Source of the DNA: an uncultured Candidatus Saccharibacteria bacterium
GTDB taxonomy: Bacteria > Patescibacteriota > JABMPQ01 > JAQVVF01
DNA: 64,000 bases
NCBI GenBank assembly: GCA_964574655.1
Contig: CAZNOH010000001.1
Span: 265,852-329,851 of the forward strand
Reading direction: 5' to 3'
The position numbers were made by a program, and so were the translations under genes. The notes under the pieces were generated by a model. That model searched no databases and was not told where the DNA came from. It worked only from the letters and a program-made list of their open reading frames with translations. This document shows, in pieces, positions 2,656 to 56,205 of the stretch (positions within the stretch are counted from its first letter, which is position 1; each line of letters opens with the position of its first letter).

Positions 2656-4374
2656 ATGGATAAACTTTGGCAGGTAAAAGAAAAAGTTAGTGAAGATTTT
2701 ATTAATAAATTTCCAGAATTCGATTCTATAGTTTTGCAATTGTTATATAATCGTGGAATTAGTAATCAAGAAAAAATTGATGAATTTTTTAATCCAGATT
2801 ATTCTCAAGATTTATACGATCCTTTTTTACTGAAAGATATGGATCGGGCAGTTGATAGAATTTTGCAGGCATTAAAAAATAAAGAGCGAGTGGGAATTTT
2901 TGGCGATTATGATGCAGACGGAGTGACTTCGTCTGTTTTGCTGACGGAATTGTTCAAGAAAATTGGTTTAGCTGGACAGGTTTATATTCCTGATCGAGTT
3001 TCAGAAGGCTATGGTATGAATAAAAAAGCAATTGATTGGCTGGCAAAAAAAGATATTAAATTAATTGTAAGTTGTGATTGTGGTGTTTCAAATAGAGAAG
3101 AGATTGATTATGCAAAAGAAAAATATGGGATTGATTGTGTGATTACCGATCATCATAATGTACCGTACGATTATGATGAAAAATATATTGTTGTTGACTC
3201 GAAAAGAAATGGCGATAAATATCCGTATAAAGAATTGGCGGGAGTGGGAATTACATTTAAGTTGGCACAGGCTATTTTTTCTCGAATAAAATCTCGAATA
3301 TCTTCGAATGCGATCTCTAATGATTTTGAAAAGAGTTTGCTTGATCTTGTGACGATTGGAACGATTGCAGATTGTTCGCCAATTATTTCTGAAAATAGGA
3401 CGTTAGTTAAATATGGATTAAAAATAATAAAAGAGACGAAAAGAATTGGTTTGCAAAGTTTAATGCAAATTGCCAGAGTTGATGCTAAAACTGTTGATAG
3501 TGATAGAGTTGGTTTTGCAATTGCACCAAGAATTAATTCAGCTGGTAGAATGGATCGAGCTTCAGCTTCGTATATGTTGTTAATTACTGATGATTTAGAC
3601 AAGGCGGTTTGGCTTTCTAAAAAAATTGATAAAACGAATTCAAGTCGTCAAGCTTTGACAAGCAAATTAGTTGATGAGGCAAAAAAGAAAATTGGTGATG
3701 TCAAAAATCAAAAAGTATTGATGGCATCTGGTTGGAAATGGCCATTAGGTGTTGTTGGAATTGTTGCTGGCAAAATTTGCGAGGAATATAATCGGCCAAC
3801 TTTGATTTGTGGCAAAGGTTTGATTGAATCTGTTGGTTCAGCTAGAAGCATTCCAGCTTTTGATATTATTTCTGCAATTTCGTCTTGCAAAGATTTGCTA
3901 TTAGAATATGGTGGGCATAAACAAGCAGCTGGATTTTCTTTAAAAAATGAAAACTTTGAAAAGTTTCATCATAAACTAGAAAAATTGGCGGATGATATAT
4001 TGACTGAAAAAGATTTACAGCCAGTGATTGAAATAGATAGTGAAGTTGATTTTAAAGATGTAAATTGGAATCTGTACGAAAAACTATTAGATTTTGAACC
4101 GCATGGAATTGGAAATCAAAAACCAGTTTTTTTGGCAAAAGATATTCAAGTTGTAAATGCTTACAATGTTGGTAAAACAAAAAAACATTTGAAAATGAAA
4201 ATTAAATTTGATTCTGATAGTCGAATTTTTGATGTAATTGGTTTTAATCACGGGCATCGTTTAGAAGAATTAAGCAGTGATAAGCGGATGGATATTGTTT
4301 TTCAGCTTGATTGCAATGAGTGGAATGGAGAACATATCTTACAACTTAGATTGATTGATTTTCGGATTGATTAA
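2656..4374 (+). CDS. recJ: Single-stranded-DNA-specific exonuclease RecJ
   Basis: DHH-family motifs (GDYDADGVTSS, ITDHHN) plus DHHA1-like region; length 572 aa. Confidence 0.85.
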   Translation: MDKLWQVKEKVSEDFINKFPEFDSIVLQLLYNRGISNQEKIDEFFNPDYSQDLYDPFLLKDMDRAVDRILQALKNKERVGIFGDYDADGVTSSVLLTELFKKIGLAGQVYIPDRVSEGYGMNKKAIDWLAKKDIKLIVSCDCGVSNREEIDYAKEKYGIDCVITDHHNVPYDYDEKYIVVDSKRNGDKYPYKELAGVGITFKLAQAIFSRIKSRISSNAISNDFEKSLLDLVTIGTIADCSPIISENRTLVKYGLKIIKETKRIGLQSLMQIARVDAKTVDSDRVGFAIAPRINSAGRMDRASASYMLLITDDLDKAVWLSKKIDKTNSSRQALTSKLVDEAKKKIGDVKNQKVLMASGWKWPLGVVGIVAGKICEEYNRPTLICGKGLIESVGSARSIPAFDIISAISSCKDLLLEYGGHKQAAGFSLKNENFEKFHHKLEKLADDILTEKDLQPVIEIDSEVDFKDVNWNLYEKLLDFEPHGIGNQKPVFLAKDIQVVNAYNVGKTKKHLKMKIKFDSDSRIFDVIGFNHGHRLEELSSDKRMDIVFQLDCNEWNGEHILQLRLIDFRID

Positions 4375-4431
4375 GTTGCTAAATTGTTCTATTGTTAAAT
4401 TGTTAAGAAATATTTTAAAAATAAAATAAAA

Positions 4432-5817: not shown

Positions 5818-6258
5818 ATGTCAACAACAGATTATATAGACAGTAAAAAAACAAAAGAATTAGATATTTATACTGATGGAGGATCAAGAGGTAATCCTGG
5901 GCCAGCAGGAATTGGGGTTGTTATTTATAATTCTGATGGTTTAGCAGTTGAAAAAGTTTCTGAATTTATTGGTGAGGCAACAAATAATCAGGCTGAATAT
6001 AATGCGTTGATTGTTGGTTTGCAGGAAGCGCAAAATTATAAAGCAAAATCTGTTCATTGTTATTTGGATAGCGAGTTAGTAGTAAAACAATTGAAAGGAC
6101 AATATAAAGTCAAAAATAAAAACATGAAGCCTTTGTTTTCGGTTGTTCAAGGATTAATCAAAGATTTTGAAAGCGTGAAATTTACGCACATACTGCGTGA
6201 AAAAAATAAGGAAGCCGATAGATTGGTTAATGAAGCTCTTGATAAGGCGGAGAGTTAA
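5818..6258 (+). CDS. rnhA: Ribonuclease HI
   Basis: IYTDGGSRGNPGPAGIGVVI and EATNNQAEYNALIVGL motifs with the catalytic DEDD arrangement. Confidence 0.85.
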   Translation: MSTTDYIDSKKTKELDIYTDGGSRGNPGPAGIGVVIYNSDGLAVEKVSEFIGEATNNQAEYNALIVGLQEAQNYKAKSVHCYLDSELVVKQLKGQYKVKNKNMKPLFSVVQGLIKDFESVKFTHILREKNKEADRLVNEALDKAES

Positions 6259-6382
6259 AAGTTATAAAGTTCATAAAGTTATAAAGTTCGTAAAGTTGAG
6301 CGATTGATTTGGAAATTGCTAAATAGTTTTATTATTTTCTTGTTTTGTTGTTTTATGGCTTAATCAAGCCTATAAAATTGTA

Positions 6383-6411
6383 TTGACAAAATTGTGTTTA
6401 TTTGATATCAT
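6383..6411 (+). promoter_or_regulatory. Sigma70-like promoter for RNase P RNA (TTGACA, 17-nt spacer, TATCAT)
   Basis: TTGACA at 6383-6388 and TATCAT at 6406-6411, about 6 nt upstream of the P1 helix start. Confidence 0.4.
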
Positions 6412-6416
6412 AATTT

Positions 6417-6930
6417 GACTCAAGTAAGTTGAGTGATTGCTTCTCGCTATGTAAAAGTGGTGAGGAGAGGAAAGTCCGGGCATCAATTCGGAAGTCAGAT
6501 ATCGGATGTCGGAGGTCGGATCGTTCCGATTTCCGAAGCTCCGATTTCCGACTTCCGAATTAAGTGGTAGTTCCGAAATGGAACCAAGGATAAAAAGTAA
6601 TCTGTTCTTCTTAAGAGAACTGATTATTTTGAACCTAGGACAAGTACCACAGAGACATATACCGCCTAGCGCATTTATGTGCTAGGTAAGGGTGAAAAGA
6701 GTGGTTTAAGAGACCACAGATTGTTATGGTGACATAACAATAGGGCAAACTCTACCTGATGCAACCCAATATAAAACTGGGGCTTGAGCTGGCAAGCGAT
6801 TGCCAGCCTAGAGAGATAATCACTGAATCGCGAATTTACACAAATTTTTCACAAATGGTATTCGTGATATTTGTGCTATATTTGTGCAAATTCGCGATTC
6901 TACAGAACCTGGCTTATAGACTTACTTGAG
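6417..6930 (+). ncRNA. rnpB: RNase P RNA (bacterial type-A-like) with two large hairpin insertions
   Basis: GGAAAGTCCGGGC (P4 5' strand, 6468-6480), GGGTGAAAAGAGTGGTTTAAGAGACCACAG (P10-P12 consensus), ACAGAACCTGGCTTA (P4 3' strand) and P1 pairing of CTCAAGTAAGT (6420-6430) with ACTTACTTGAG (6920-6930). No ORF; locally GC-rich. Confidence 0.7.
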
Positions 6931-7071
6931 TTTTTTAATCGCGAATGTACACAAATTCACCACAAATATCACAAATGTTTTCAACAAGGGCTTGTTGATT
7001 TTTTTTATGTTTAAGGTTAGAATATTAATAGTTTACAGTTAATTATTTTCTAATAACTATCTTTTGTTAAC

Positions 7072-8457
7072 ATGAAACGATCCGAGTTATTTTTTACAGC
7101 TGTATTAGTTCCATTGGATTTTATAATGCTTGTTTTGGCAGCAATTTCTGCCTATTTTTTGAGGTTTACTACTTATTTTGTTGATATTAGAGAAGTAAAA
7201 TTTGATTTGCCTTTTTCGCATTATATTGTTTTTGTTGCTGTTATTGCTTTAACTTGGTTATTGATTTTTTCTTTTTTGGGACTCTATGATGTAAAAAAGA
7301 AAAGAAGATTTGTTGATGATCTCTATCTAGTGTTTGTTGCAGTCTCAACTGGCATGGCGGCAATATTTGCATATTTGTTTTTTTCTCAAGAATTATTTGG
7401 TTCGCGTTTTATTGTTCTAGTGGTTTGGTTTTTCAGCATTGTTTATGTTGTTACTGCTCGTCAATTTGTGAAGATTTTCAAAAAATGGCTTTATCGTTTC
7501 AATATTGGCGTTCATCGAGTTGTTTTAGTTGGCCTTAATCCAATCAGTCAAAGCATTGTTAAATATTTAACAGAAAAAAAATATTCTGGCTACAAAGTTG
7601 TTGCAAGAATTAAAAGTTTCGATGAGACAGTTGAAGGAACATTGGAGAGAATATCACAACGAAAAGGCATAGATGAAATTATTCAGATTGATCCAAAATT
7701 GTCGAAAGGTCAGGTTTTATCTTTGATTGATTTTGCTGATGAAAGAAAGATTGATTTTAAATATGCTCCGGATCTTTTTGGGACTCAGGCAACAAACATT
7801 GATGTAGAAACTTTTTATGGCGTGCCGATTGTTTGTTTAAAAAGAACACCATTGGATGGATGGGGCAGAATAATTAAAAGAATCGTTGATGTAATTATTG
7901 CTGTTATTCTATTGTTGATTTTGTCACCAATTTTTTTGATAGTTTCTATAATTGTAAAAATTGATTCAAGAGGTCCTGTGTTTGTGAGACTGAAACGTGT
8001 TAAAAAAGATGGAGAATTCTATATTTTTAAATTTAGATCAATGGTTAAGAATGCTCATAAAATGAAAGAAGAGCTATTGAAATACAGCGAGAGAAAGGGT
8101 CCGTTATTCAAGATGAAAGATGATCCAAGAGTTACAAGAATTGGCGGGTTTTTGAGAAAAACAAGAATTGATGAATTGCCACAGTTAATGAATGTTGTTC
8201 GCAACGAGATGAGCTTGATCGGTCCAAGACCGCATGAACCGCAAGAAGTAGAAAAATATACAAAACATCAAAGACGAGTTTTAGAAATTAAGCCTGGAAT
8301 GACAGGAATGGCGCAAGTTTCTGGAGCTTCAGATCTTAGTTTCAATGAAGAAGTCAGATTGGATACTTATTATATTGAGAGTTGGTCTTTGTTGTTAGAT
8401 TTACAGATTTTCTTGAAGACAATACTTATTGTTCTAACAATGAGAGGAGCAGCGTAA
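7072..8457 (+). CDS. Polyprenyl-phosphate sugar phosphotransferase (WbaP/WcaJ-like bacterial sugar transferase)
   Basis: N-terminal TM helices; C-terminal sugar-transferase domain (RIIKRIVDVIIAVILL...SPIFLIVSIIVKIDSRGPVFV, ELPQLMNVVRNEMSLIGPRP). Confidence 0.85.
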   Translation: MKRSELFFTAVLVPLDFIMLVLAAISAYFLRFTTYFVDIREVKFDLPFSHYIVFVAVIALTWLLIFSFLGLYDVKKKRRFVDDLYLVFVAVSTGMAAIFAYLFFSQELFGSRFIVLVVWFFSIVYVVTARQFVKIFKKWLYRFNIGVHRVVLVGLNPISQSIVKYLTEKKYSGYKVVARIKSFDETVEGTLERISQRKGIDEIIQIDPKLSKGQVLSLIDFADERKIDFKYAPDLFGTQATNIDVETFYGVPIVCLKRTPLDGWGRIIKRIVDVIIAVILLLILSPIFLIVSIIVKIDSRGPVFVRLKRVKKDGEFYIFKFRSMVKNAHKMKEELLKYSERKGPLFKMKDDPRVTRIGGFLRKTRIDELPQLMNVVRNEMSLIGPRPHEPQEVEKYTKHQRRVLEIKPGMTGMAQVSGASDLSFNEEVRLDTYYIESWSLLLDLQIFLKTILIVLTMRGAA

Positions 8458-8458
8458 C

Positions 8459-8585
8459 GAATTTCTAATTTCTAATTTTAAATTTCTATTAAATTTTAAA
8501 TGAATAAATTTTTAAACTCTTGACGAAACTATTGTTAAGGTTTGAAAATTAAGTAATTAGAAATTTAATAGAAATTAGAAATTGA
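8459..8585. repeat. MITE-like palindromic element, family 1 (TIR AATTTCTAATTTCTAATTT / AATTTAATAGAAATTAGAAATT)
   Basis: ~125-bp intergenic element with terminal inverted repeats; a second copy lies at 25257..25395 with a near-identical TIR and core (TTTTTAAACTCT). Confidence 0.55.
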
Positions 8586-8602
8586 TAATTAAAAATTTTA
8601 AT

Positions 8603-9727
8603 ATGAAGGTCGCTTTAGTACATGATTTTTTAAATCAAGTTGGCGGGGCTGAAAAGGTCTTGGAAATTTTTCATGAAATTTTTCCAAGAGCTCCAGTATA
8701 TACTATCACTTACGATGAAAAAGAAACTCGCGGTGTTTTCAAACATCTGAACATCAAAACTTCTTTTATTCAGCGTTTGCCTTTTGGTGTGAAGCAATAC
8801 AAGTGGTATATATCAATGATGCCAGCAGCTATTGAGCAGTTTGATTTTTCAAAGTATGACATTGTTTTGTCTGATTGTTCTGCATTTTCAAAAGGCGTGA
8901 TTGTTAGACCAGAGACTTTGCATATAAGCTATGTTCATTCTCCAACAAGATATCTTTGGAATGATACTCATAGCTACACTGAAGAAATAAAACAGCCTGG
9001 CGTTATTAAAAAAATGTTGCCTTTGGTTTTGCAAAAGATTAGAACTTGGGACCAATTAGCGGCGCAAAGAGTTGATAAAATGATTGCTAATTCAAAAACT
9101 GTTTCTGAAAGAATTGAAAAATATTATAAAAGAAAAAGCGATATTATATATCCGCCTGTTGAGACAGGCAAGTATTATATTTCTAATGACATTGATGATT
9201 ATTTTTTGGTTGTTTCAAGACTTCGTCCTTATAAAAGGGTTGATTTAGTTGTTGAAGCTTTTAATGCTTTGAGATTGCCTTTGAAAGTTATTGGAACTGG
9301 CGAGGAATTACAGACTTTGAAAAAAATGGCAAATGATAATATCGAATTTTTAGGTCCTGTATCTGATAAAGAAAAAGCATATTATCTTTCAAGATGTAGA
9401 GCTTTTATACATCCACAAGAAGAAGATTTTGGTATTACTGCTTTGGAAGCAATGGCATCTGGAAGGCCAGTTATTGCTTATAAAAAAGGCGGAGCTGTAG
9501 AAACAGTAATTCCTGGGAAAACCGGTATCCTGTTTGAAGATCAATCTCCATGGAGTTTGGTTGATGCTGTGAGAGACTTTAAAGAAGAAGATTTTAATCC
9601 AGAGGAAATAAGAAAGCGCGCATTGGATTTTGATATCAAATTGTTCAAAGACAGAATAGAAAAATATATTTTTGATTCATATAAAAATTTCAAGAATAAA
9701 AGGGAAGATTATTATAAGGTTAGTTAA
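8603..9727 (+). CDS. Glycosyltransferase family 4
   Basis: MKVALVHDFL start, EDFGITALEAMASGRPVIAYKKGGAVETV GT4 C-terminal signature; upstream TTG at 8582 is an alternative start. Confidence 0.8.
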   Translation: MKVALVHDFLNQVGGAEKVLEIFHEIFPRAPVYTITYDEKETRGVFKHLNIKTSFIQRLPFGVKQYKWYISMMPAAIEQFDFSKYDIVLSDCSAFSKGVIVRPETLHISYVHSPTRYLWNDTHSYTEEIKQPGVIKKMLPLVLQKIRTWDQLAAQRVDKMIANSKTVSERIEKYYKRKSDIIYPPVETGKYYISNDIDDYFLVVSRLRPYKRVDLVVEAFNALRLPLKVIGTGEELQTLKKMANDNIEFLGPVSDKEKAYYLSRCRAFIHPQEEDFGITALEAMASGRPVIAYKKGGAVETVIPGKTGILFEDQSPWSLVDAVRDFKEEDFNPEEIRKRALDFDIKLFKDRIEKYIFDSYKNFKNKREDYYKVS

Positions 9728-9728
9728 C

Positions 9729-10246
9729 TAATCGCTAATCATTTGCTAATTTTTGCTAATAATTTGCTAATTGCTTGCTAATTTTTTAATAATATGGAGG
9801 GGTTAATATATAAAGATTTAAGTTATAGAATCGTAGGATTGTGTTATGCTATTCATAATCTTTTAGGTCCGGCTTGTAAAGAAATTCAATATAAAGATGG
9901 ACTAGAAGTTGAATTTAAAGGAGAAAAGATAAAATATGAACGAGAGAAAGAGATTTTATTTTATAGCAAAAATGGAAAGATTGGAGGCAATCGAGTTGAT
10001 TTTGTTATAAATAATCAAATTATTTTGGAAGCTAAATCAAAAATGTTTCTTACTCCCGAAGATAAAAGACAAGTTTTAAGATATTTAAAAGTTGGAAAAT
10101 ATAAATTAGGTTTGTTAGTTAATTTTAGAGGTAAAAAAGTAAATGTTTGTCGCATTGTTAATTCAGACTTATCTGATGATATTGGAATAAATACTACTTT
10201 ATTATTGGCAAATAATTTGCAAAAATTAGCAAATGATTAGCGATTA
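9729..10246. mobile_element. Mini-cassette: GxxExxY gene flanked by perfect 28-bp inverted repeats (TAATCGCTAATCATTTGCTAATTTTTGC)
   Basis: 9729-9756 is the exact reverse complement of 10219-10246; TTGCTAAT-type tandem motifs continue outward on both sides. Confidence 0.5.
9794..10240 (+). CDS. GxxExxY family protein (PD-(D/E)XK-like)
   Basis: LSYRIVGLCYAIHNLLGPACKEIQY, VDFVI and ILEAKS motifs typical of the GxxExxY family. Confidence 0.7.
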   Translation: MEGLIYKDLSYRIVGLCYAIHNLLGPACKEIQYKDGLEVEFKGEKIKYEREKEILFYSKNGKIGGNRVDFVINNQIILEAKSKMFLTPEDKRQVLRYLKVGKYKLGLLVNFRGKKVNVCRIVNSDLSDDIGINTTLLLANNLQKLAND

Positions 10247-10265
10247 ATTAATTTAAATAAACTAT

Positions 10266-10874
10266 ATGCATCCAAAAAATTATATTCAAGTAATTTTAAG
10301 GCACAAATTTACAATAATTGCCTGTATTGTTTTGTGTGGTTTAACGGCACTGATTTACGCTTATGTAAAACCTCAAGCTTTTAGTTCGAACATTTCAATG
10401 TCTTTTCATCGCGTAAATAAAGAAGCAACAGTTGATTATCAGTATGATAATTATTATGCTGGCAAGGCAGTTGAAATTGTTTCCAACACTGTAGCTGGCT
10501 GGTTGCAAACTCCGAATATTGTCCAGGAAATTTATACAGAAGCAAAGGTAACTCCAGACGATATTTATAAAGATGCAAAGAAATTTAAACCAAAACAAGT
10601 TTCTGCTCATCAAGTGGAAATGAGATTGGTAAATAAAAATAGACAAGATTTAGAAAAATTATCTAAAGCAACTGTTGCGGTAATGAAAAATAAAGTGGCG
10701 AATTTGGAAGTTACAAATGAGCAAAAAAATGCTTTTGATGTGATTTCTGAAGATCCAATAATTACGGAAGTAAAATATAGTCCATTGATGTTGGCTTTGA
10801 TTGGTCTTGTTGCTGGATTGTTTGTTGGCATTGGATTGGCTTTTCTTTGGGAATACTTTAGCGAGACAGATTAG
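10266..10874 (+). CDS. Polysaccharide chain-length-determinant-like (Wzz-like) bitopic membrane protein
   Basis: N-terminal and C-terminal TM helices around a soluble domain; C-terminal GLAFLWEYF resembles Wzz family ends; lies in the glycan locus. Confidence 0.45.
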   Translation: MHPKNYIQVILRHKFTIIACIVLCGLTALIYAYVKPQAFSSNISMSFHRVNKEATVDYQYDNYYAGKAVEIVSNTVAGWLQTPNIVQEIYTEAKVTPDDIYKDAKKFKPKQVSAHQVEMRLVNKNRQDLEKLSKATVAVMKNKVANLEVTNEQKNAFDVISEDPIITEVKYSPLMLALIGLVAGLFVGIGLAFLWEYFSETD

Positions 10875-10925
10875 GCAAGCGCTGATTTTACGCTGATTTC
10901 TAACGCTGATGTGACGCTGATTGAT
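10875..10925. repeat. Intergenic repeat family 3 (CAAGCGCTGATTT.ACGCTGATTTCTAACGCTGAT.TGACG.TGAT)
   Basis: Near-identical ~52-nt copy at 24396..24447; both start right after a stop codon. Confidence 0.6.
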
Positions 10926-10974
10926 GCAAAATTAAAGAAGGGATATTGTTCTGTCATTTTATTTTTATATATTT

Positions 10975-11991
10975 GTGCCAAGATCACCAGAACAGCCATC
11001 ACAATTAGCTGATATTCAAAAAGAAACTGGAGAAAAAGCTCCAGGTTTTGAAATTGCTAAAACTCCAGAATCAAAGAATTTCGTTGATGTTGTTGGTAAT
11101 TTAGCAGAAAAAGTGGAGCGAGATGAGAATGTAACAGCAGGAGAAGTTCTAGATTTAGAACAAGCATTGGACAGATTAATCGAATCAGATCCAAGATTAG
11201 AAGCAAAAAGATTGTTTGGCGAGAGCTATATGGGACCAGATGAGATAGAAAGACATTTTACTCTAGAAAGCGGTGAGAAGCTATTTGAATATACTCCTAA
11301 ACAAAGACAAAGAATTAATCAAATGCTCAGAGAAAAGCTAGCTGATCCGCAAATCAAAGATTTAATCAAGAGAACACTAAGAGAAGAATTAAGGCAGAGA
11401 TTTCAACTTTTTCTTTTTCCAGATAAATTCAAAGATGGAACAAAAGTAACAATGAAAAGTCTGAATGACAAATTCCAGCCAGAAATGACAAGACGAGGTT
11501 CGGGTAAATTATTATTCGATACAAGTTGGTACAAAAATGAAGAATTCTTTACTTCTGATTCCAATCCTCTATCTTGGAAGTTATTAAGCCGTGGCAATAT
11601 CGAAGGATCAAATAACAAGAGCTATATTGAAGAAACAAGATTTTTTAGAGAATATTTGAGGCAAAACAATTTAGCTACAGCTGATGAATTAAAAGAATGC
11701 AGTGATGAAAGATTAGCAAAATTAGAACGATTAATGGCAACGAACTGGAAAAAAGCTGGAAAGCAACTATCAGAACTAAGGATTAATAAGAAATACCGGA
11801 TTAATCCTTTCGAAATTATTTTTATTCATGCTGCTAACAAAAGCGGATTGACTAAATATGCTAGGACTGCAAAGCGCTCGTCTGATGGGAGGTTGGTCCG
11901 TGCTGGGCGCTGTGATTCCCTTGGCGCGGATGTGATTTGTTGGAGGCCTGTCGATGCCCTTGACGGTGTGGGTGTTTCTGTCTCCCGCTAG
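10975..11991 (+). CDS. Paralogous-family protein C (conserved N-terminal domain; divergent C-terminus with GC-rich tail)
   Basis: GEKAPGFEIAKTPES...LAEKVERDENVTAGEVLDLEQALDRL aligns with the family N-domain; the last ~45 codons (11860-11991) are far more GC-rich than the rest. Confidence 0.5.
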   Translation: MPRSPEQPSQLADIQKETGEKAPGFEIAKTPESKNFVDVVGNLAEKVERDENVTAGEVLDLEQALDRLIESDPRLEAKRLFGESYMGPDEIERHFTLESGEKLFEYTPKQRQRINQMLREKLADPQIKDLIKRTLREELRQRFQLFLFPDKFKDGTKVTMKSLNDKFQPEMTRRGSGKLLFDTSWYKNEEFFTSDSNPLSWKLLSRGNIEGSNNKSYIEETRFFREYLRQNNLATADELKECSDERLAKLERLMATNWKKAGKQLSELRINKKYRINPFEIIFIHAANKSGLTKYARTAKRSSDGRLVRAGRCDSLGADVICWRPVDALDGVGVSVSR

Positions 11992-12050
11992 TGCGAACAA
12001 TTGAATTCTTGATTTGGTTTTAAAATTTTTATGTTTTTATTTTTTTAAGT

Positions 12051-13214
12051 ATGATAATCGGTATTGATATCAGATCTTTGATGGAAGGGAAAAGAAGCGG
12101 TGTTCAGCAGTACTTGATTAATTTAATGCGTAATTTATTTGTAATTGATAAAAAAAATCAATACAAACTTTTTTGCAATGCTTATAAAAAAAATAGTCTA
12201 GATGTCTCTGAATTTGAAAAATTTCCTAATGTAAAAGTTTGCAAATTCAATTATCCTAACAAAATTTTAAATACTAGTTTCTGGCTTTTGAAGTATCCGA
12301 AGATTGATAAATTGATCAATAATTTGGATATTTTTTTTGCGCCTAATATTTTGTTTTCTGCAATTTCTCCGAAATGCAAATTTGTAACAACGATTCATGA
12401 TTTATCTTTTGATTATTTTAAGAGATTCTATTCTTTGAAAAGAAGATTTTGGCATAATATTGTTGGACCGAAGAAAAAGATTATAAAATCTGATGCAGTT
12501 ATTTGCGTATCGCAATCAACAGCTAGTGATTTAATAACTAAATATGACGTGAATAAAGAAAAAGTGCATGTTGTATATTCTGGAATTGAGAAATTCGAAA
12601 ATTCTGATATTCGGATATTAGATATTAAGAAAAAATATAATTTACCAAATAATTTTGTTTTGTTTTTAGGTGCCATGGAGCCACGCAAAAATATTGTTGG
12701 ACTTATTGAAGCTTTCGAATTATTGAAGTTTTCCCATATCTCATTTCCCATTTCTCACCTCTCAAATCTAAAACTTGTTATTGCTGGATCAGGCGGTTGG
12801 CTTGAAAAAAGAGTGAGAAAAGTGTATGAGCAATCTAAATTTAAAAATGATATAATATTTTTGGGCTATGTTGATGAGAAGGATAAAGCTGCTTTATATA
12901 GCTTAGCAAAATTGTTTGTTTATCCATCTTTTTATGAAGGATTCGGTTTTCCGCCATTGGAAGCAATGTCAGCTGACTGTCCAGTCGTGACTTCTAATGT
13001 TGGATCTTTGTCGGAAGTTTGTGAGAAAGCAGCAATATTGATTGATCCGTATAATGTTAATGAAATTTTTGAAGCAATGAAGCAAGGATTGGATGATGAA
13101 AAATTACGGGAATATTTGATTGCTGAAGGCAAGAAACAAATTTTAAAATTTGATTGGAAAAAATGTGCGAAGGAGACGTTGAAGGTGTTTGAATCATTAA
13201 GCACAAAATCCTAA
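12051..13214 (+). CDS. Glycosyltransferase family 4
   Basis: EGFGFPPLEAMSADCPVVTSNVGSLSEV signature; GT4 two-domain layout. Confidence 0.8.
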   Translation: MIIGIDIRSLMEGKRSGVQQYLINLMRNLFVIDKKNQYKLFCNAYKKNSLDVSEFEKFPNVKVCKFNYPNKILNTSFWLLKYPKIDKLINNLDIFFAPNILFSAISPKCKFVTTIHDLSFDYFKRFYSLKRRFWHNIVGPKKKIIKSDAVICVSQSTASDLITKYDVNKEKVHVVYSGIEKFENSDIRILDIKKKYNLPNNFVLFLGAMEPRKNIVGLIEAFELLKFSHISFPISHLSNLKLVIAGSGGWLEKRVRKVYEQSKFKNDIIFLGYVDEKDKAALYSLAKLFVYPSFYEGFGFPPLEAMSADCPVVTSNVGSLSEVCEKAAILIDPYNVNEIFEAMKQGLDDEKLREYLIAEGKKQILKFDWKKCAKETLKVFESLSTKS

Positions 13215-13340
13215 TATCTAAATTCTAAACAAATTTAAATGCTCAAAACTAAAAAATTAAAAACCGACGTTAGTTTTTGAATTTTGGTATTTAAGTTTTG
13301 GATTTGTTTAGGATTTAGAAATTAGTGCTTAGAGTTTTTT
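13196..13340. repeat. Palindromic intergenic element, family 2 (CTAAACAAATT(C/T)AAA ... TTTGGATTTGTTTAGGATTTAGA)
   Basis: Copies at 2508..2650, 13196..13340, 17405..17540 and 46365..46512; each overlaps the stop codon of the upstream gene and ends just before the next start. Confidence 0.6.
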
Positions 13341-17408: not shown

Positions 17409-17540
17409 AATCCTAAATCCTAAATCCTAAATCCTAAATAAATTCAAAATTCTAATGACTAAAATAAAAAAAATGACGTTTTCTTATTTTAATTTTTGAT
17501 TTTGGATTTATTTAGGATTTAGAGTTTTGATTTTTTTAAT
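17405..17540. repeat. Palindromic intergenic element, family 2 (copy with a 4x AAATCCTAA left arm)
   Basis: AATCCTAAATCCTAAATCCTAAATCCTAAATAAATTCAAA ... TTTGGATTTATTTAGGATTTAGAG. Confidence 0.6.
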
Positions 17541-24447: not shown

Positions 24448-24660
24448 TTTTGCCAATGACTTAAAATTCTGCTATACTTTAAGTCAAGGCAGGAAAAATC
24501 AGCCAAGTTAAAACGAGGGTAACTGTTACGCCGACAAGGACAATCCAAATAATTTTTTTCTTTAGTTTATTTTGCATATAATACACTAATTATCACTAAT
24601 AACTCTAATTTACACTAATAAAATATTAGTGGCAATTAGTGGTATTAGCGAGGTATTAGA

Positions 24661-25257
24661 GTGAGGCCTATGTTTGAAGATTATTTAACCCAAGATTTAA
24701 AACAAGACGAGGAAGTGGTGGTTATTTTTCGAAAAAGTTGGGGAAGCCGTCTAGCTTCTATTTTAAAGATTATTTTATTTTTGGCAATACCACTTGTTTT
24801 TTCTTTTGTTTTACTGACACATTGGCTGGGCGGAATTATTTTTACTTTATTATTGTTGTGGGCAGTTTTTTACGCTCTATATGTATGGATGAATTGGTAT
24901 TTTGATAGCGTTGTAATCACAAATCAAAGAATCATTAAAGTTAGTCAAAAAGGGCTTTTTAATAGAGCAGTTGAAGAATTTCCTTTAGATCATGTTGGAA
25001 ATGTTAGTTATGAAATTCCTGGTTTTTTAGCAACTTTTTTTAAATATGGTACCTTAAAGATTGAAATGGATTATGGTAAGAAGACAGATTTAGAGTGTTT
25101 AAGCGGTCCGAGACAAACTCAAGACTTGCTTATAGAATTAGCGCGTTTAGCTCGCAAAAAAATATCAGCAGAAGAATTGATTGAATTTATTTCTCGCGTG
25201 AAGTGGGATGTCTATAAAAGAGAGGGAGGGTTGAAGAAGAAAGAGAAGATAGAGTGA
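24661..25257 (+). CDS. Membrane protein with bacterial PH (bPH_2/DUF304-like) domain
   Basis: Two TM helices followed by NWYFDSVVITNQRIIKVSQKGLFNRAVEEFPLDHVGNVSYEIPG, typical of YdbS/YdbT-like PH domains. Confidence 0.5.
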   Translation: MRPMFEDYLTQDLKQDEEVVVIFRKSWGSRLASILKIILFLAIPLVFSFVLLTHWLGGIIFTLLLLWAVFYALYVWMNWYFDSVVITNQRIIKVSQKGLFNRAVEEFPLDHVGNVSYEIPGFLATFFKYGTLKIEMDYGKKTDLECLSGPRQTQDLLIELARLARKKISAEELIEFISRVKWDVYKREGGLKKKEKIE

Positions 25258-25395
25258 ATTTCTAATTTCTAATTTTTAATTTCTATTAAATTTTTAATGC
25301 TTTAATTTTTAAACTCTACGGGTTAGATAGTATTAGATGTTTAGAAATTAGTTTATTGAAAATTTAATAGAAATTAGAAATTAAGAATTATAAAT
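25257..25395. repeat. MITE-like palindromic element, family 1 (second copy)
   Basis: GAATTTCTAATTTCTAATTTTTAATTTCTATTAAATTT ... AAATTTAATAGAAATTAGAAATTAAGAATT. Confidence 0.55.
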
Positions 25396-25400
25396 TTGTA

Positions 25401-43929: not shown

Positions 43930-44033
43930 CTTCGTCCCTCCTTGTTGGGAAAGTGCTATAGTTAGCATAGGCTTAAAATATTTGTTTGTCAATTTTTGTC
44001 AAAGAAAAAACAACATCAAAGATGTTGTTTGGG

Positions 44034-44107
44034 TGGTCCTGGCCGGGTTCGAACCGGTGACCTTTCGCTCCGCAGGCGAACGCTCTATCCAGCTGAGCTA
44101 CAGGACC
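44034..44107 (-). tRNA. tRNA-Arg (anticodon GCG)
   Basis: Reverse complement GGTCCTGTAGCTCAGCTGGATAGAGCGTTCGCCTGCGGAGCGAAAGGTCACCGGTTCGAACCCGGCCAGGACCA; anticodon loop CTGCGGA; perfect cloverleaf. Confidence 0.85.
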
Positions 44108-44187
44108 TAAAGGTGCAAAATGTCAATGTGTTGTGTGAAGGTGCGAGAAGAAATAAATTGGTTGTTTTGCAAAAAGTGTTAACTTTT

Positions 44188-44263
44188 TGGTAGGCCTGAT
44201 CGGGCTCGAACCGACGACCCTCCGCTTAGAAGGCGGACGCTCTATCCACTGAGCTACAGGCCC
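44188..44263 (-). tRNA. tRNA-Arg (anticodon TCT), CCA encoded
   Basis: GGGCCTGTAGCTCAGTGGATAGAGCGTCCGCCTTCTAAGCGGAGGGTCGTCGGTTCGAGCCCGATCAGGCCTACCA; anticodon loop CTTCTAA. Confidence 0.85.
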
Positions 44264-44295
44264 GAAAATCTGAATGAATAAACTGAATTTCTGGG

Positions 44296-44369
44296 TGGGC
44301 GTGACCAGATTCGAACTGGCGACCATCCGCTTCGAAGGCGGATACTCTATCCACCTGAGCTACACGCCC
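44296..44369 (-). tRNA. tRNA-Arg (anticodon TCG)
   Basis: GGGCGTGTAGCTCAGGTGGATAGAGTATCCGCCTTCGAAGCGGATGGTCGCCAGTTCGAATCTGGTCACGCCCA; anticodon loop CTTCGAA. Confidence 0.85.
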
Positions 44370-44386
44370 TAATGAGAACTGATGTC

Positions 44387-44460
44387 GTGACCCCAGCGAG
44401 GTTCGAACCCGCGACCTACGGATTAGGAATCCGTCGCTCTATCCAGCTGAGCTATGGGGC
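44387..44460 (-). tRNA. tRNA-Arg (anticodon CCT)
   Basis: GGCCCCATAGCTCAGCTGGATAGAGCGACGGATTCCTAATCCGTAGGTCGCGGGTTCGAACCTCGCTGGGGTCA; anticodon loop TTCCTAA. Confidence 0.85.
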
Positions 44461-44480
44461 CTAAAAGGAACAAGAATGAA

Positions 44481-44556
<76 letters not shown>

Positions 44557-45425: not shown

Positions 45426-46373
45426 ATGATTAAAGTAGAAAATCTTACAAAAACATACGCAGATTTTAAAGCGCTTGACGGTGTTTCTTTTGAGGTTCAA
45501 AAGGGAGAAGTCATTGGCTTTTTAGGTCCTAATGGCGCTGGAAAAACAACAACAATGAGAATTTTGACTGGTTTTTTCCCTCCAACTTCAGGAAGAGTTG
45601 AGATTGATGGTTTTGATGTTTTTAGCGATTCATTGGAAGTTCGCAAAAGAATTGGTTACTTGCCAGAAAATACGCCATTATATCAAGACATGGAAGTTTA
45701 TTCTTTTTTGAGATATATTGCAGAATTGAAAGATGTTGAACCAGAAAAGAAAAATCAGCATATCAAGAATATTATGATTCGTTGCGGAATTGAACACATG
45801 AAAAATGAAATTATTTCTCGCCTTTCAAAAGGTTATAAACAAAGAGTTGGTTTAGCGCAAGCGTTGATTGGCGATCCAAAGGTTTTGATTCTAGATGAAC
45901 CAACAATTGGTTTAGATCCAAAGCAGATTATTGAGATTAGAAATTTGATTAAAGAATTAGGCAAGGAAAAAACAATTATATTATCAACTCATATTTTACC
46001 AGAAGTTGCAGTTACTTGTTCTAGAGTGATTATTATCAATGACGGAAAGATTGTAGCTGAAGACACGCCAGAGAATTTGGAAAATAAGGTTTCTGGAGTG
46101 GCAAAAGTAATTGTTACGGTGCGTGGTGGAAATCCTGATTTAATCAAGACAAGATTGCAAGGAATCAAGGGTGTCAGTAATGTGACTGTTTTAAAAAATA
46201 ATGCAGGTTTAACTGATTTAAGCGTTCAATCAGAAAAGGATGTTGATACTAGAGATAAGATTTCGCAAATTGTTGTTCAAAATAATTGGGGATTGATTGA
46301 AATGCACAGAGAGACATTAGGATTAGAAGAAATATTTTTGAAACTTACAAAGAAGGAAAATTCTAAATCCTAA
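45426..46373 (+). CDS. ABC transporter ATP-binding protein (ABC-2/GldA-like)
   Basis: GPNGAGKTTTMRIL, LSKGYKQRVGLAQAL and LILDEPTIGLD motifs. Confidence 0.85.
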   Translation: MIKVENLTKTYADFKALDGVSFEVQKGEVIGFLGPNGAGKTTTMRILTGFFPPTSGRVEIDGFDVFSDSLEVRKRIGYLPENTPLYQDMEVYSFLRYIAELKDVEPEKKNQHIKNIMIRCGIEHMKNEIISRLSKGYKQRVGLAQALIGDPKVLILDEPTIGLDPKQIIEIRNLIKELGKEKTIILSTHILPEVAVTCSRVIIINDGKIVAEDTPENLENKVSGVAKVIVTVRGGNPDLIKTRLQGIKGVSNVTVLKNNAGLTDLSVQSEKDVDTRDKISQIVVQNNWGLIEMHRETLGLEEIFLKLTKKENSKS

Positions 46374-46512
46374 ACTCGTTAAAAGCTTCTAAGGTCGCTT
46401 TTAACTTCTAAATAAATTCAAATGATAAAATTACAAATTCGACAAAGAGTTTTAAAGATTTTAATTTTGAGTTTATTTAGAATTTAGGATTTAGAGTTTT
46501 GAATTTAAGAAA
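46365..46512. repeat. Palindromic intergenic element, family 2 (fourth copy)
   Basis: ...TTCTAAATAAATTCAAATGA ... TTTGAGTTTATTTAGAATTTAGGATTTAGAG. Confidence 0.55.
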
Positions 46513-46514
46513 TT

Positions 46515-47225
46515 ATGCATAATATTTTAACGATTGCAAAAAAAGAGTTAAGATCATATTTTTTATCATCGATTGCTTATGTAGTATTTGCGATGTTTTT
46601 GCTTTTGGCAGGTTATTTTTTCACTGTAATTTTATTGTATACCCAAGAAGCTTCGTTAAAAGGCGTGGCATATAATATTGTAATTACTTTGTTATTCTTG
46701 ATTCCTTTATTGACGATGAGAACATTTGCTGAAGAAAGACGGCAAGGTACTTTGGAATTATTAATGACAAAGCCAGTTACTGATTTAGAAGTGGTGTTAG
46801 GCAAGTTTTTTGCTGTAACTGCGATGTATTTTATAATGCTTTTGTCAACTGTTGCATATGTATTTATTTTGATTAAATATGGAAATCCTGACATGGGTCC
46901 AATTTATTCTGCTTATATTGGATTGATTTTGGTTGGATTGTCTTTTATTGCTTTGGGTGTTTTTGTTTCAACTTTAACTGAAAATCAGATTGTGGCAGCA
47001 GTAATCGGTTTTGCTTTAATTCTATTGCTTTGGGTTTTGTCTTGGGCATCATCACAATTTACTGGCAATATGGCAGAAATAATTTCTTATTTGTCTTTAT
47101 CTGGGCATTACGATAATTTTGTAAAAGGCGTGATTGATCTAAAGGATGTAGTCTATTATTTGAGTTTTATTATATTTTGGCTATTTGTAACTGTAGAATC
47201 AGTTGGAATAAGAAGATGGAAATAA
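46515..47225 (+). CDS. ABC-2 family permease (GldF-like)
   Basis: Six predicted TM helices; follows the ABC-2 ATPase and precedes the GldG-like gene. Confidence 0.7.
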   Translation: MHNILTIAKKELRSYFLSSIAYVVFAMFLLLAGYFFTVILLYTQEASLKGVAYNIVITLLFLIPLLTMRTFAEERRQGTLELLMTKPVTDLEVVLGKFFAVTAMYFIMLLSTVAYVFILIKYGNPDMGPIYSAYIGLILVGLSFIALGVFVSTLTENQIVAAVIGFALILLLWVLSWASSQFTGNMAEIISYLSLSGHYDNFVKGVIDLKDVVYYLSFIIFWLFVTVESVGIRRWK

Positions 47226-47345
47226 AAGTCGCTAATATTTTGCTAATATTTGCGAATATTTTGCGAATAAAGTTAAAAATTATGACGGAAAATTAGTTTT
47301 TATTAGCAAATTATTAGCAAATATTTGCAAATGATTAGCGAGTAA
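47226..47345. repeat. Empty IR element related to the GxxExxY cassette ends (TTGCTAAT/GCGAATA tandem motifs in inverted orientation)
   Basis: Left arm CGCTAATATTTTGCTAATATTTGCGAATATTTTGCGAATAA, right arm TTATTAGCAAATTATTAGCAAATATTTGCAAATGATTAGCGAG; shares the CGCTAAT(C)ATTTGC core with 9729..9756. Confidence 0.45.
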
Positions 47346-54903: not shown

Positions 54904-56205
54904 ATGATATTACATATTGATATGAATTCATATTTTGCTACTTGTGAATAACAGGCAAATCCTTTTTTGCGTGGAAAACCGGTGGCTATCGGAGGGGATC
55001 CAAGGTCGTTTCATAATGGTGAAATTTCGAGGAGCCGGACTTTGATTGTAGCTGCATCTAAAGAGGCAAAAAAAAGAGGTGTAAAATCTGTTATGCCGTC
55101 TTGGGAGGCAGTGAAAATTTGTCCGGAATTAATTTTTGTGCCTGGCGATCATATAAAATACAAATGGATTACTGACAAATTTTTAGAAATATTTAAATCA
55201 TATTCGCCTATTCTAGAAATTTTTAGTATTGATGAAGCTTTTTTAGAAATCGCGAATTTGCACGAATTAAGCACAAATATCACAGATGGTAGAAATTTTG
55301 ATAGAGCAATTAAGATTGCTAAAGAAATTAAGTTAAGATTGAAAAAGGAAGTTGGCGAGTGGATGACTTGTTCAATTGGAATCGCGGAAAATAAATTGTT
55401 GGCAAAGCTGGCTTCGGATTTAAAAAAACCAGATGGATTAGTTATAATTGATGAAAATAATAAAGAAAAGATTTTGGATTCTATTGAACTGACTGATTTT
55501 TGCGGGATTGGCAAAAGAATAGAGGCAAGATTAAATAGAATGGGAATTTTTACAGTAAAGCAATTAAAGAATTGTTCTTATATTAATTTAACGAAAGAAT
55601 TTAAATCTTACGGCCATAAATTATATTTAATGGCCAGAGGCGAAGATAACTCAGAAGTTGTTCCATATTATTTATTGCCAGATGAAAAATCAATGGGCCA
55701 TAATTTTACTTTGCCAAAAGATGTTTGGGATTTGAAAGAAATCAAATCAGTTATTTTGCAATTGTCAGAAAAACTAGGCAGGAGATTGAGACGGAAAAAT
55801 TTTGTTGCAAAATGTATGACATTATTATTGAGATATTCTTTTTATGAAAAAAATATTGGTTATGTGAGTTTTCATCATTTTCATAAACAAAAAAAAGTAA
55901 GTTATTGGATTAATGATGGTTATGAGATTTATAAAATTACAGAAAAAATTTTGCAAAGCTGGAAAGATAATCAATCTGTTAGAATGATTGGCGTTGCTGT
56001 TTCTTGTTTTTCTAAAATAAATCAAATTTCTTGTTTGGAAAAAGATAATAAGTCAAAAAGAATTTTAAAAGCTTCGGATAAGATAAATAATAAGTTTGGA
56101 GAAAATACTATTTTTAGAGGTGCATATTTAAAAGCTGGAAAGTCAAAAATTTTGATGCCGAAAGCATTAAAATCGCCAGTTAGTTTTATGAGAAGAAATG
56201 ATTAA
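54904..56205 (+). CDS. dinB: DNA polymerase IV (DinB, Y-family) with an in-frame TAA at codon 16 (54949-54951)
   Basis: [30 protein letters not shown]... aligns with the DinB N-terminus including the catalytic-Asp region; the ORF track only gives the TTG-initiated fragment 54967..56205; downstream IDEAF and SIGIAENKLLAKLAS motifs are present. Confidence 0.7.

Follow-up and report, generated by a model that had tools for sequence, protein, structure and literature searches.

The 64,000-nt stretch of DNA analysed here, hereafter the window, carries at positions 9718-10255, in a sugar-polymer operon, a small cassette (about 0.5 kb) in which a gene for a GxxExxY-family protein, a PD-(D/E)XK nuclease, lies between two inverted arrays of short sequence motifs. 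Comparison with relatives shows that this segment is an insertion, that the same inverted-array design is common to the gene's relatives in many contexts and several phyla, and that full and gene-less copies sit in frame inside protein-coding genes. We give roughly even chances to the reading that the segment is a very small autonomous mobile element with gene-less derivatives, its nuclease probably recognising the arm motif. The original prediction, made from the letters of the window, had already proposed a mobile or recombinogenic element carrying the GxxExxY gene, and an empty site in a relative together with inverted repeats that travel with the gene now support it.

As that prediction had stated, positions 9729-9756 (TAATCGCTAATCATTTGCTAATTTTTGC) are the exact reverse complement of 10219-10246 (28/28 nt); 100 dinucleotide-preserving shuffles gave no match, even with up to three mismatches allowed. 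A repeat finder traces the pairing further, over 48 nt that are 92% complementary (9724-9771 and 10204-10251, arm-to-arm distance 432 nt), giving terminal inverted repeats of the kind that mark insertion sequences (IS) and MITEs (miniature inverted-repeat transposable elements). The left arm (9724-9771, + strand) begins at the TAA stop codon of the upstream GT4 glycosyltransferase gene and reads TCGCTAAT (9732-9739) followed by four TTGCTAAT units at 10-12-nt spacing: 9743-9750, 9753-9760 and 9764-9771 in the arm, and 9775-9782, the fifth unit of the array, in the inner left spacer (9772-9793, + strand). The right arm (10204-10251, - strand) is an inverted copy of the left, with ATTAGC units at 10225-10230 and 10236-10241 and innermost, degenerate ATTGGC/ATTTGC units at 10204-10220. 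TTGCTAAT is present in 15 copies in the window, where 6.95 would be expected; the cassette accounts for five of them and a hairpin at 47226-47345 for three. Further tandem motifs had been predicted beyond each arm. Such units do exist outside the 28-nt core, but on its inner, gene-proximal side (the last two on the left and the degenerate ones on the right), where they form part of the longer, imperfect arms. The other gene-spanning inverted repeats of the window (I14, I17 and I22-I24) are weak (71-83%) and AT-rich and were treated as chance.

The gene (9794-10240, + strand) is intact and encodes 148 aa, with the family domain at residues 9-122. Its predicted identity was borne out by profiles, the protein scoring 94.9 bits against TIGR04256 (GxxExxY, cut-off 35) and 92 bits against PF13366 (PDDEXK_3, cut-off 22), as was its position between the GT4 gene (8582-9727, + strand) and a Wzz-like gene (10266-10874, + strand), the latter through a weak PF02706 match (27.2 bits, cut-off 25.5). 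The right repeat does overlap the last codons: the TAG stop codon (10238-10240) lies inside the right arm, which encodes the C-terminal 26 aa, and these are missing from all homologues (alignments with them span about 84% of the query). As for putative catalytic residues, E30, D69, E79 and K81 are all present; across 31 aligned sequences G25, E30, D69, K81, Q93 and Y97 are invariant and position 79 is E or D. An AlphaFold model of the protein (pLDDT 91.2) has the PD-(D/E)XK fold and comes closest among solved structures to Cas4 SSO0001 (E = 2e-4, TM 0.52), lambda exonuclease and MGME1; a sequence search of solved structures gave no meaningful match. The sole Pfam/NCBIfam match in the cassette is PDDEXK_3/GxxExxY, and no recognised transposase (DDE, HUH/Y1, serine or tyrosine) is encoded there. 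Models of defence systems (PADLOC) returned noise only for this protein, PHROGs gave one weak match to a family without assigned function, and no relatives of the gene were found on viral contigs. The family is large, with 20,876 members among 50%-identity clusters at an E-value of 0.001 or below (1.84 billion cluster representatives searched). Its function is entered as 'Unknown' in PMC3424549, the sole functional entry that our literature search found; the search turned up no publication dealing with either what GxxExxY proteins do or cassettes of this kind.

Relatives were found by a scan with the GT4 protein, one genome per species. The closest of them, locus L092, encodes GT4 and Wzz-like proteins 96% and 93% identical to those of the window (about 82-87% nucleotide identity) and is colinear with 5818-9717 and 10256-10864. 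The blastn blocks end at 9717 and restart at 10256, delimiting an insert (9718-10255, + strand) that comprises arms and gene: where the window has 538 nt, L092 has about 30, with no gene and no hairpin. The original prediction had suggested looking for relatives in which the GT4 and Wzz-like genes are adjacent, and L092 is not the only one; the two genes follow one another directly, without a GxxExxY gene, in 11 further relatives as well (L093-L100, L106, L109, L116, L118 and L120). Two read sets, SRR13723393 and SRR13723396, contain the filled allele. There is thus presence/absence polymorphism at a conserved site, as for IS and MITEs. The same operon of L141 bears, one spacer upstream, a different GxxExxY cassette, whose arms are its own (GGGGGGTCTAATCTACAAAT.../...ATTAGACCCCCC). 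The ends are discrete, since in L076 and L087 homology is confined to the segment AACCGCGAT...ATCGATGTT and the flanks differ. As a putative target-site duplication, TTAA is ambiguous: it stands on both sides of the cassette but is palindromic and includes the host stop codon, and the L092 spacer differs by an indel of about 17 nt.

Is the association between gene and arms particular to this locus? Four homologues (46-57% identity), each in an unrelated context, all proved to have inverted arrays on their flanks (4/4), and across homologues of 43-57% identity the inverted repeats accompany the gene into unrelated contexts. A metagenome scan then gave 80 further homologue loci, 78 of them with flanks sufficient for scoring. 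Scored for local inverted repeats between their 130-nt flanks, the homologues reach a median of 19 and 126 control open reading frames (ORFs) from the same loci a median of 8 (Mann-Whitney p = 1e-28); 83% of the 78 loci lie above the 95th percentile of the controls. An arm is made up of three to six units that end in GCGAAT, ACGAAT, GCTAAT, ACAAAT or GCCAAT, and the outermost unit of either arm has the consensus (Y)GAT[GA]CNAAT. The 6-mers TGCGAA, ATGCGA and TACGAA show 30- to 47-fold enrichment and a strict orientation, running forward in the upstream flanks and as reverse complements in the downstream ones. Where an element departs from the common motif, both of its arms do so together (GCAGAT in L040; GCGAAA in L014, L019 and L024; CCCGAAT in L036). 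Unit spacing peaks at 8-9 nt, not 10.5, which speaks against helical phasing. Cassettes separate genes that normally adjoin (gatC and gatA, an ABC ATPase and its permease, fabD and fabG), and one context is DUF3048 and holA.

The design extends to distant homologues: CGCGAATGCGCGAA/TTCGCACATTCGCG flanks on a contig of 47% G+C, GACACGAATTGCACGAA in L173, ACACGGAT/ACACGGATTCG in Treponema, inverted CACAGAG arrays in Bacteroides and Bernardetia, and ACGCGAAG arrays in Sphingomonas (64% G+C), there between fabD and fabG. Three distant homologues have no clear flank pattern. Arrays of the cassette motif class number 12 in the 64 kb of the window, the cassette's two arms included, and none in a composition-matched shuffle; per 100 kb they reach 6.7 near GxxExxY genes, 18.8 in the window and 1.6 in unrelated Patescibacteria loci. 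Co-orientation with neighbouring genes (37:8 upstream, 49:2 downstream) was considered as evidence and judged uninformative because nearly all genes in these genomes are on one strand. L085 has two GxxExxY cassettes (163-576 and 1192-1599) that have diverged and do not share arms; they stand 1 kb apart and flank one gene. In L003 the second gene downstream of a GxxExxY cassette (3760-4425) is a weak match to Y1 transposases (PF01797), possibly by coincidence.

Gene-less copies with the same ends also exist. The 'empty' version of the repeat that had been predicted at 47226-47345 is real, a hairpin (47229-47341, no strand assigned) with 43-nt arms at 47229-47271 and 47299-47341, 86% complementary around a 27-nt loop, between genes for an ABC-2 permease and an ABC auxiliary protein. 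Its arms are colinear unit by unit with those of the cassette and about 85-88% identical to them, with the same unit order, the same terminal TCGCTAAT/ATTAGCGA, an identical terminal GCAAATGATTAGCGA and 25/28 matches in the right arm. Two other unstranded hairpins of the window belong to the cassette motif class. One (24580-24660) is gene-less and built of CACTAAT units; the other (6825-6900, TCGCGAAT then CACAAAT units) lies inside the RNase P RNA gene, and the right arm of this hairpin finds its complement in a solo array at 6937-6976. That RNase P RNA (class A, 178 bits, 6421-6932) is 512 nt long against a model of 367 positions and has two extra tandem-motif hairpins, the second of which, at about 6486-6565, is built of TCGGA-type units and takes up 123 nt, against 12 in the model. 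Related copies that include gene-less derivatives with the same ends are therefore several, if one counts 47229-47341, the gatB gene of L187 and the two cassettes of L085.

Many members of the PDDEXK_3 family turn out to be long host proteins with an internal domain, and RecG, GatB, asparagine synthase and GT4 proteins of this sort were confirmed. Cassettes complete with arms, and gene-less hairpins of the family, are in frame in housekeeping genes, among them those for P0085 and P0165 (RecG), P0139 (AsnB), and P0091 and P0063 (GT4); P0091 has three translated hairpins plus one full cassette. In L187, gatB (501-2486) contains an in-frame full cassette with arms of CGAAT arrays and a separate gene-less hairpin, and both have the terminal CGCTTCGCCC[GT]AATGA. 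Reading frames that continue through an insert of about 550 nt point to translation rather than to RNA excision. An identical 25-mer, AATTTGCACGAATTAAGCACAAATA, occurs within cassette-class solo arrays at 1465-1489 and 55255-55279 of the window, in an acetate kinase gene (1405-2526) and a Y-family DNA polymerase gene (54967-56205). It is in frame and read ..NLHELSTN.. in both, and the two sites look like in-frame insertions of a solo arm.

The design is not restricted to GxxExxY genes. A blind scan of 1.05 Mb of fetched DNA for ORFs of 70-260 aa with strong flanking inverted repeats yielded 30 GxxExxY genes, two 23S_rRNA_IVP genes and one GIY-YIG gene (the last three at L137 5212-5565, L043 290-652 and L169 1402-1674). 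The 23S_rRNA_IVP product is a four-helix bundle, not a nuclease. Its gene in L137 directly follows a GT4 gene, and its flanks are tandem-motif arrays, whereas the GIY-YIG gene is flanked by a simple 22/25 inverted repeat. Cyanobacterial plasmids (L179-L182) add 23S_rRNA_IVP genes between inverted GTCAGGA heptamer arrays in Nostoc and Trichormus, between AGGAGATA arrays in Picosynechococcus (there between cas10 and cmr3), and between direct AAAAGCT/AAAAGCC arrays in Pseudanabaena (between cas6 and cas4); the last two are thus insertions into CRISPR-Cas operons. Each 23S_rRNA_IVP case has an arm motif different from the others, whereas the arms of GxxExxY genes are alike in their core even between phyla.

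Judged by substitution patterns, both the protein and the arms of the GxxExxY cassettes are under purifying selection. Between orthologous cassettes the ratio of nonsynonymous to synonymous substitution rates (dN/dS) of the protein is 0.06-0.17, and pairs that have diverged further show stronger conservation of the arms than of third codon positions (0.86-0.88 against 0.64 for L057/L060; 0.77-0.90 against 0.53 for L076/L087). Together with the conserved catalytic residues, this argues that protein and arms are both functional.

How might such an element work? Its parts are a left array of four to five units of 8-11 nt (TCGCTAAT/TTGCTAAT), a PD-(D/E)XK gene of about 125 aa and an inverted array, and it would have inserted exactly into the spacer of about 30 nt between two genes of an operon. 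The arms would act on DNA, as arrays of binding sites, rather than as a selected RNA stem, and the encoded nuclease would be the protein that reads them, probably by recognising their motif. It may draw the two ends together and cut there, with host recombination or repair completing the movement without target duplication. Gene-less hairpins would be non-autonomous derivatives that have lost their interior and are mobilised in trans, in the way that IS mobilise MITEs and RAYT transposases (REP-associated tyrosine transposases; REP, repetitive extragenic palindromic sequences) mobilise REPINs. The predicted stem of about 50 bp formed by the arms in the operon transcript may limit harm to the operon, although it is apparently not what selection maintains.

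Several observations weigh against a mobile element of this kind. We know of no precedent for a PD-(D/E)XK protein of about 125 aa as the sole mobility enzyme. Nothing reliable by way of a target-site duplication was seen in the L092 alignment or on inspection of L141, L006 and L076/L087. The copy number is low, with two GxxExxY genes in 705 kb of Patescibacteria sequence, and among the cassettes found in different contexts none were near-identical and none closer than about 79%; movement must accordingly be rare or old. Some cassettes have stayed at one site over a synonymous divergence (dS) of about 0.9, which would fit a domesticated gene as well. The homologues of Fusobacteria (L178) and Prevotella (L185) have direct, not inverted, flanks, and the higher array density near GxxExxY genes could stem from lineage sampling. 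Lastly, since 23S_rRNA_IVP genes have array flanks with other motifs, arms need not be read by their own cargo.

The strongest alternative, which we nonetheless hold to be unlikely, is an RNA element resembling the intervening sequences (IVSs) of rRNA. Its arms would pair in the polycistronic transcript and RNase III would release the insert, the nuclease being passive or unrelated cargo and the spread due to recombination or horizontal transfer. The predicted fold of 9700-10275 speaks for it, as the arms pair into the stem of about 50 bp in both the minimum free energy and centroid structures (-134.7 kcal/mol, z = -6.2). So does a geometry near that of the Coxiella 23S rRNA IVS, which is 428-444 nt long, closes with a terminal stem of 28 bp, carries an ORF within the loop and is excised by RNase III (PMC4990558). 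Tandem arrays around 23S_rRNA_IVP genes, the ORF family of rRNA IVSs, in Patescibacteria and cyanobacteria, and a hairpin of the cassette motif class inside an RNase P RNA gene, point the same way. Selection for an RNA stem should leave G:U-tolerant mismatches and compensatory changes, and neither was seen. On the sense strand, arm mismatches in 69 cassettes are 125 G:U-compatible and 125 A:C, whereas the other hairpins of the window have 34 and 11 on the + strand, as expected of RNA hairpins (the window's two hairpins of the cassette motif class have 0/0 and 0/1). In older cassettes the units still match between the arms while the spacers between units mismatch, and arms of orthologous cassettes change with no compensation that could be detected by eye. 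Lack of G:U bias, unit-only matching and lack of compensation lead us to read the arms as two arrays of a recognised sequence motif, and we therefore demoted the RNA-stem model despite its good predicted fold. It is further weakened by the direct flanks, which cannot pair; by the stop-free in-frame copies in gatB, recG, asnB and GT4 genes, which imply translation through the insert; and by the related motif core across phyla of very different G+C content, which pairing alone leaves unexplained.

Somewhat less plausible again is a resident, domesticated nuclease that controls itself, acquired long ago and now immobile. The arrays would then be operators to which either the nuclease or some host factor binds, and looping between them could repress a potentially toxic enzyme. 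Strong purifying selection on the protein, its persistence at one locus over large divergence and its low copy number are all in keeping with this, as is the fact that arm sequences are conserved singly and not as pairs. There is also a promoter-like match abutting the start codon (TTGCTA-18 nt-AATAAT, 9764-9793), weak and by consensus only (9/12), in which the innermost left unit overlaps the -35-like hexamer that precedes the -10-like one; L003 reads TTGCAA, 16-17 nt, TATAAT. An immobile gene leaves unexplained the gene-less two-arm hairpins with the same termini, the in-frame insertions in essential genes and at many different sites, and the absence from a relative as close as L092.

A third possibility, which we consider improbable, is homing into pre-existing hairpins. 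In that case hairpins spread independently, the nuclease cuts gene-less ones, and repair from a filled copy places the gene in the loop. This would account for a gene that is always at the loop position and for the gene-less hairpin with closely similar arms in the same window, and PD-(D/E)XK homing endonucleases such as I-Ssp6803I are known. Hairpins with other motifs moreover come and go at the spacer between the GT4 and Wzz-like genes, as seen in L093, L095, L097 and L116; in relatives this spacer has hairpins of quite unlike motifs or no hairpin. Yet the empty site of L092 has no hairpin, so that two steps or a precise loss would be required, and the spread of the gene-less hairpins themselves remains unaccounted for.

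Almost every spacer of the window longer than about 100 nt holds a long hairpin with arms of short tandem motifs, which raises the question of whether the cassette is merely another such hairpin. Although the window is rich in long AT-rich hairpins directly after stop codons, an ordinary terminator or chance repeat around a gene is extremely improbable given the 28/28 repeat without chance expectation, the 432-nt loop, the recurrence in 83% of homologue loci, and the lack of any terminator-like site at either arm (the intrinsic pattern of a short G+C-rich stem, small loop and T-run was searched for). The original prediction had allowed that the repeat might prove a widespread terminator motif without insertion polymorphism; instead polymorphism exists, and the mismatch spectrum of cassettes differs from that of ordinary hairpins. 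Two dispersed families of hairpins of about 120 nt, with arm mismatches that favour G:U (34 against 11), can be recognised in the window. One has AAATCCTAAAT-type (CTAAAT) units and is found at 2500-2649 (from 2518), 13211-13325, 17415-17534 and 46330-46527 (from 46359); the other, with AATTTCTAAT- and TTTCTAAT-type units, is found at 8460-8597 and 25257-25396. Each of these starts at, or a few bases from, the stop codon of the upstream gene.

The reading of the cassette as a mobile element invites an extension that we put forward tentatively and think somewhat doubtful, namely that GxxExxY cassettes and the identically built 23S_rRNA_IVP cassettes form one unrecognised superfamily of ultra-small mobile elements in many phyla, with arrays of 7-11-nt motifs as ends and GxxExxY as a new kind of mobility enzyme. 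If true, it would give a common origin to cyanobacterial short tandemly repeated repetitive (STRR) and heptamer arrays, ORF-bearing rRNA IVSs, the additional hairpins of RNase P RNA and the palindromic insertions that lie in frame in proteins of the Candidate Phyla Radiation (CPR), all of them unexplained features. The common genomic design offers the GxxExxY/PDDEXK_3 family a testable role. It also provides a concrete hypothesis for the cyanobacterial arrays, for the origin of ORF-bearing rRNA IVSs and for the long tandem-motif hairpins of CPR genomes. For annotation, it accounts for spurious N- and C-terminal extensions and for 'fusion' RecG, GatB, AsnB and GT4 proteins with an internal PDDEXK_3 domain.

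As to the wider setting, the window has 33% G+C and nearly all its genes are on one strand; the relatives of these genes are in Patescibacteria (CPR) genomes. A second insert absent from L092 lies at 10865-12025 and holds a 338-aa ORF (10975-11991, 37% G+C) that matches no family above threshold and faintly resembles CdiA tRNases. Four ACGCTGAT units (about 10876-10925) form an array on one side only, ahead of this ORF, and in L092 the Wzz-like gene directly adjoins the next GT4 gene. Five tRNA-Arg genes (anticodons GCG, TCT, TCG, CCT and CCG) are clustered on the minus strand at 44032-44556.

How does the cassette compare with systems already described? It behaves in the manner of an IS and the MITEs that depend on it, or of a RAYT and its REPINs, and resembles an rRNA IVS, yet it belongs to none of these families, because it has no known transposase, is not in rRNA and has no HUH enzyme. 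With the ORF-bearing 23S rRNA IVSs of Coxiella and Leptospira (S23p/23S_rRNA_IVP) it has in common a size of about 0.45-0.5 kb, terminal repeats, a stem of about 28 bp and a small ORF, as well as insertion into a transcribed unit without destroying it and a sporadic distribution (PMC4990558). Unlike them, it lies in the spacer of an mRNA operon and not in an rRNA helix (the window has no rRNA), its cargo is a PD-(D/E)XK nuclease, and its arms, which are arrays of short motifs, bear no mark of having been selected to pair as RNA.

Inverted ends, a very small enzyme, gene-less derivatives, insertion polymorphism and the lack of visible target duplication recall the IS200/IS605 family and MITEs. 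IS200/IS605 elements have a TnpA of about 130-150 aa and hairpin ends, and make no target duplication. The difference is that the cassette enzyme is PD-(D/E)XK, not HUH or DDE, and that its arrays of 8-11-nt units pair with each other, not as a hairpin at each end. REP/RAYT (REPIN) systems likewise combine a low-copy gene with inverted flanking copies of a short repeat that is dispersed between genes as hairpin-forming doublets, but a RAYT is a Y1 HUH transposase, inherited vertically at a fixed site, whereas the cassette is a unit inserted at many sites.

The Rickettsia palindromic elements (RPEs), reportedly described by Ogata and colleagues in 2000, are comparable as palindromic selfish DNA found in intergenic regions, in RNA genes and in frame in protein-coding genes. 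We know of no RPE that encodes an enzyme, whereas the cassette is a full copy with a nuclease gene. Free-standing homing endonuclease genes, such as the seg and mob genes of phages, are also small nuclease genes between conserved neighbours with presence/absence polymorphism, and I-Ssp6803I is a PD-(D/E)XK homing enzyme. They have no terminal inverted repeats and enter only the homologous site, unlike the cassettes, which occupy many sites and have gene-less derivatives.

The cyanobacterial STRR and heptamer arrays (hupS-hupL hairpins, TAACTGA repeats) are similar to the arms in being tandem 7-nt units, in operon spacers and able to form hairpins. Their function is unassigned and they have been treated as regulatory or structural repeats (PMC2670836, PMC4679880); in the searchable literature we found no link between them and GxxExxY or 23S_rRNA_IVP genes. 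To judge from the title of Vioque 1997 as cited in PMC2858038, an STRR lies inside the cyanobacterial RNase P RNA gene, which parallels the tandem-motif hairpins at 6421-6932 of the window. Set beside all these systems, the mirrored arrays around a small gene, found in several phyla, point to an undescribed class of very small mobile elements.

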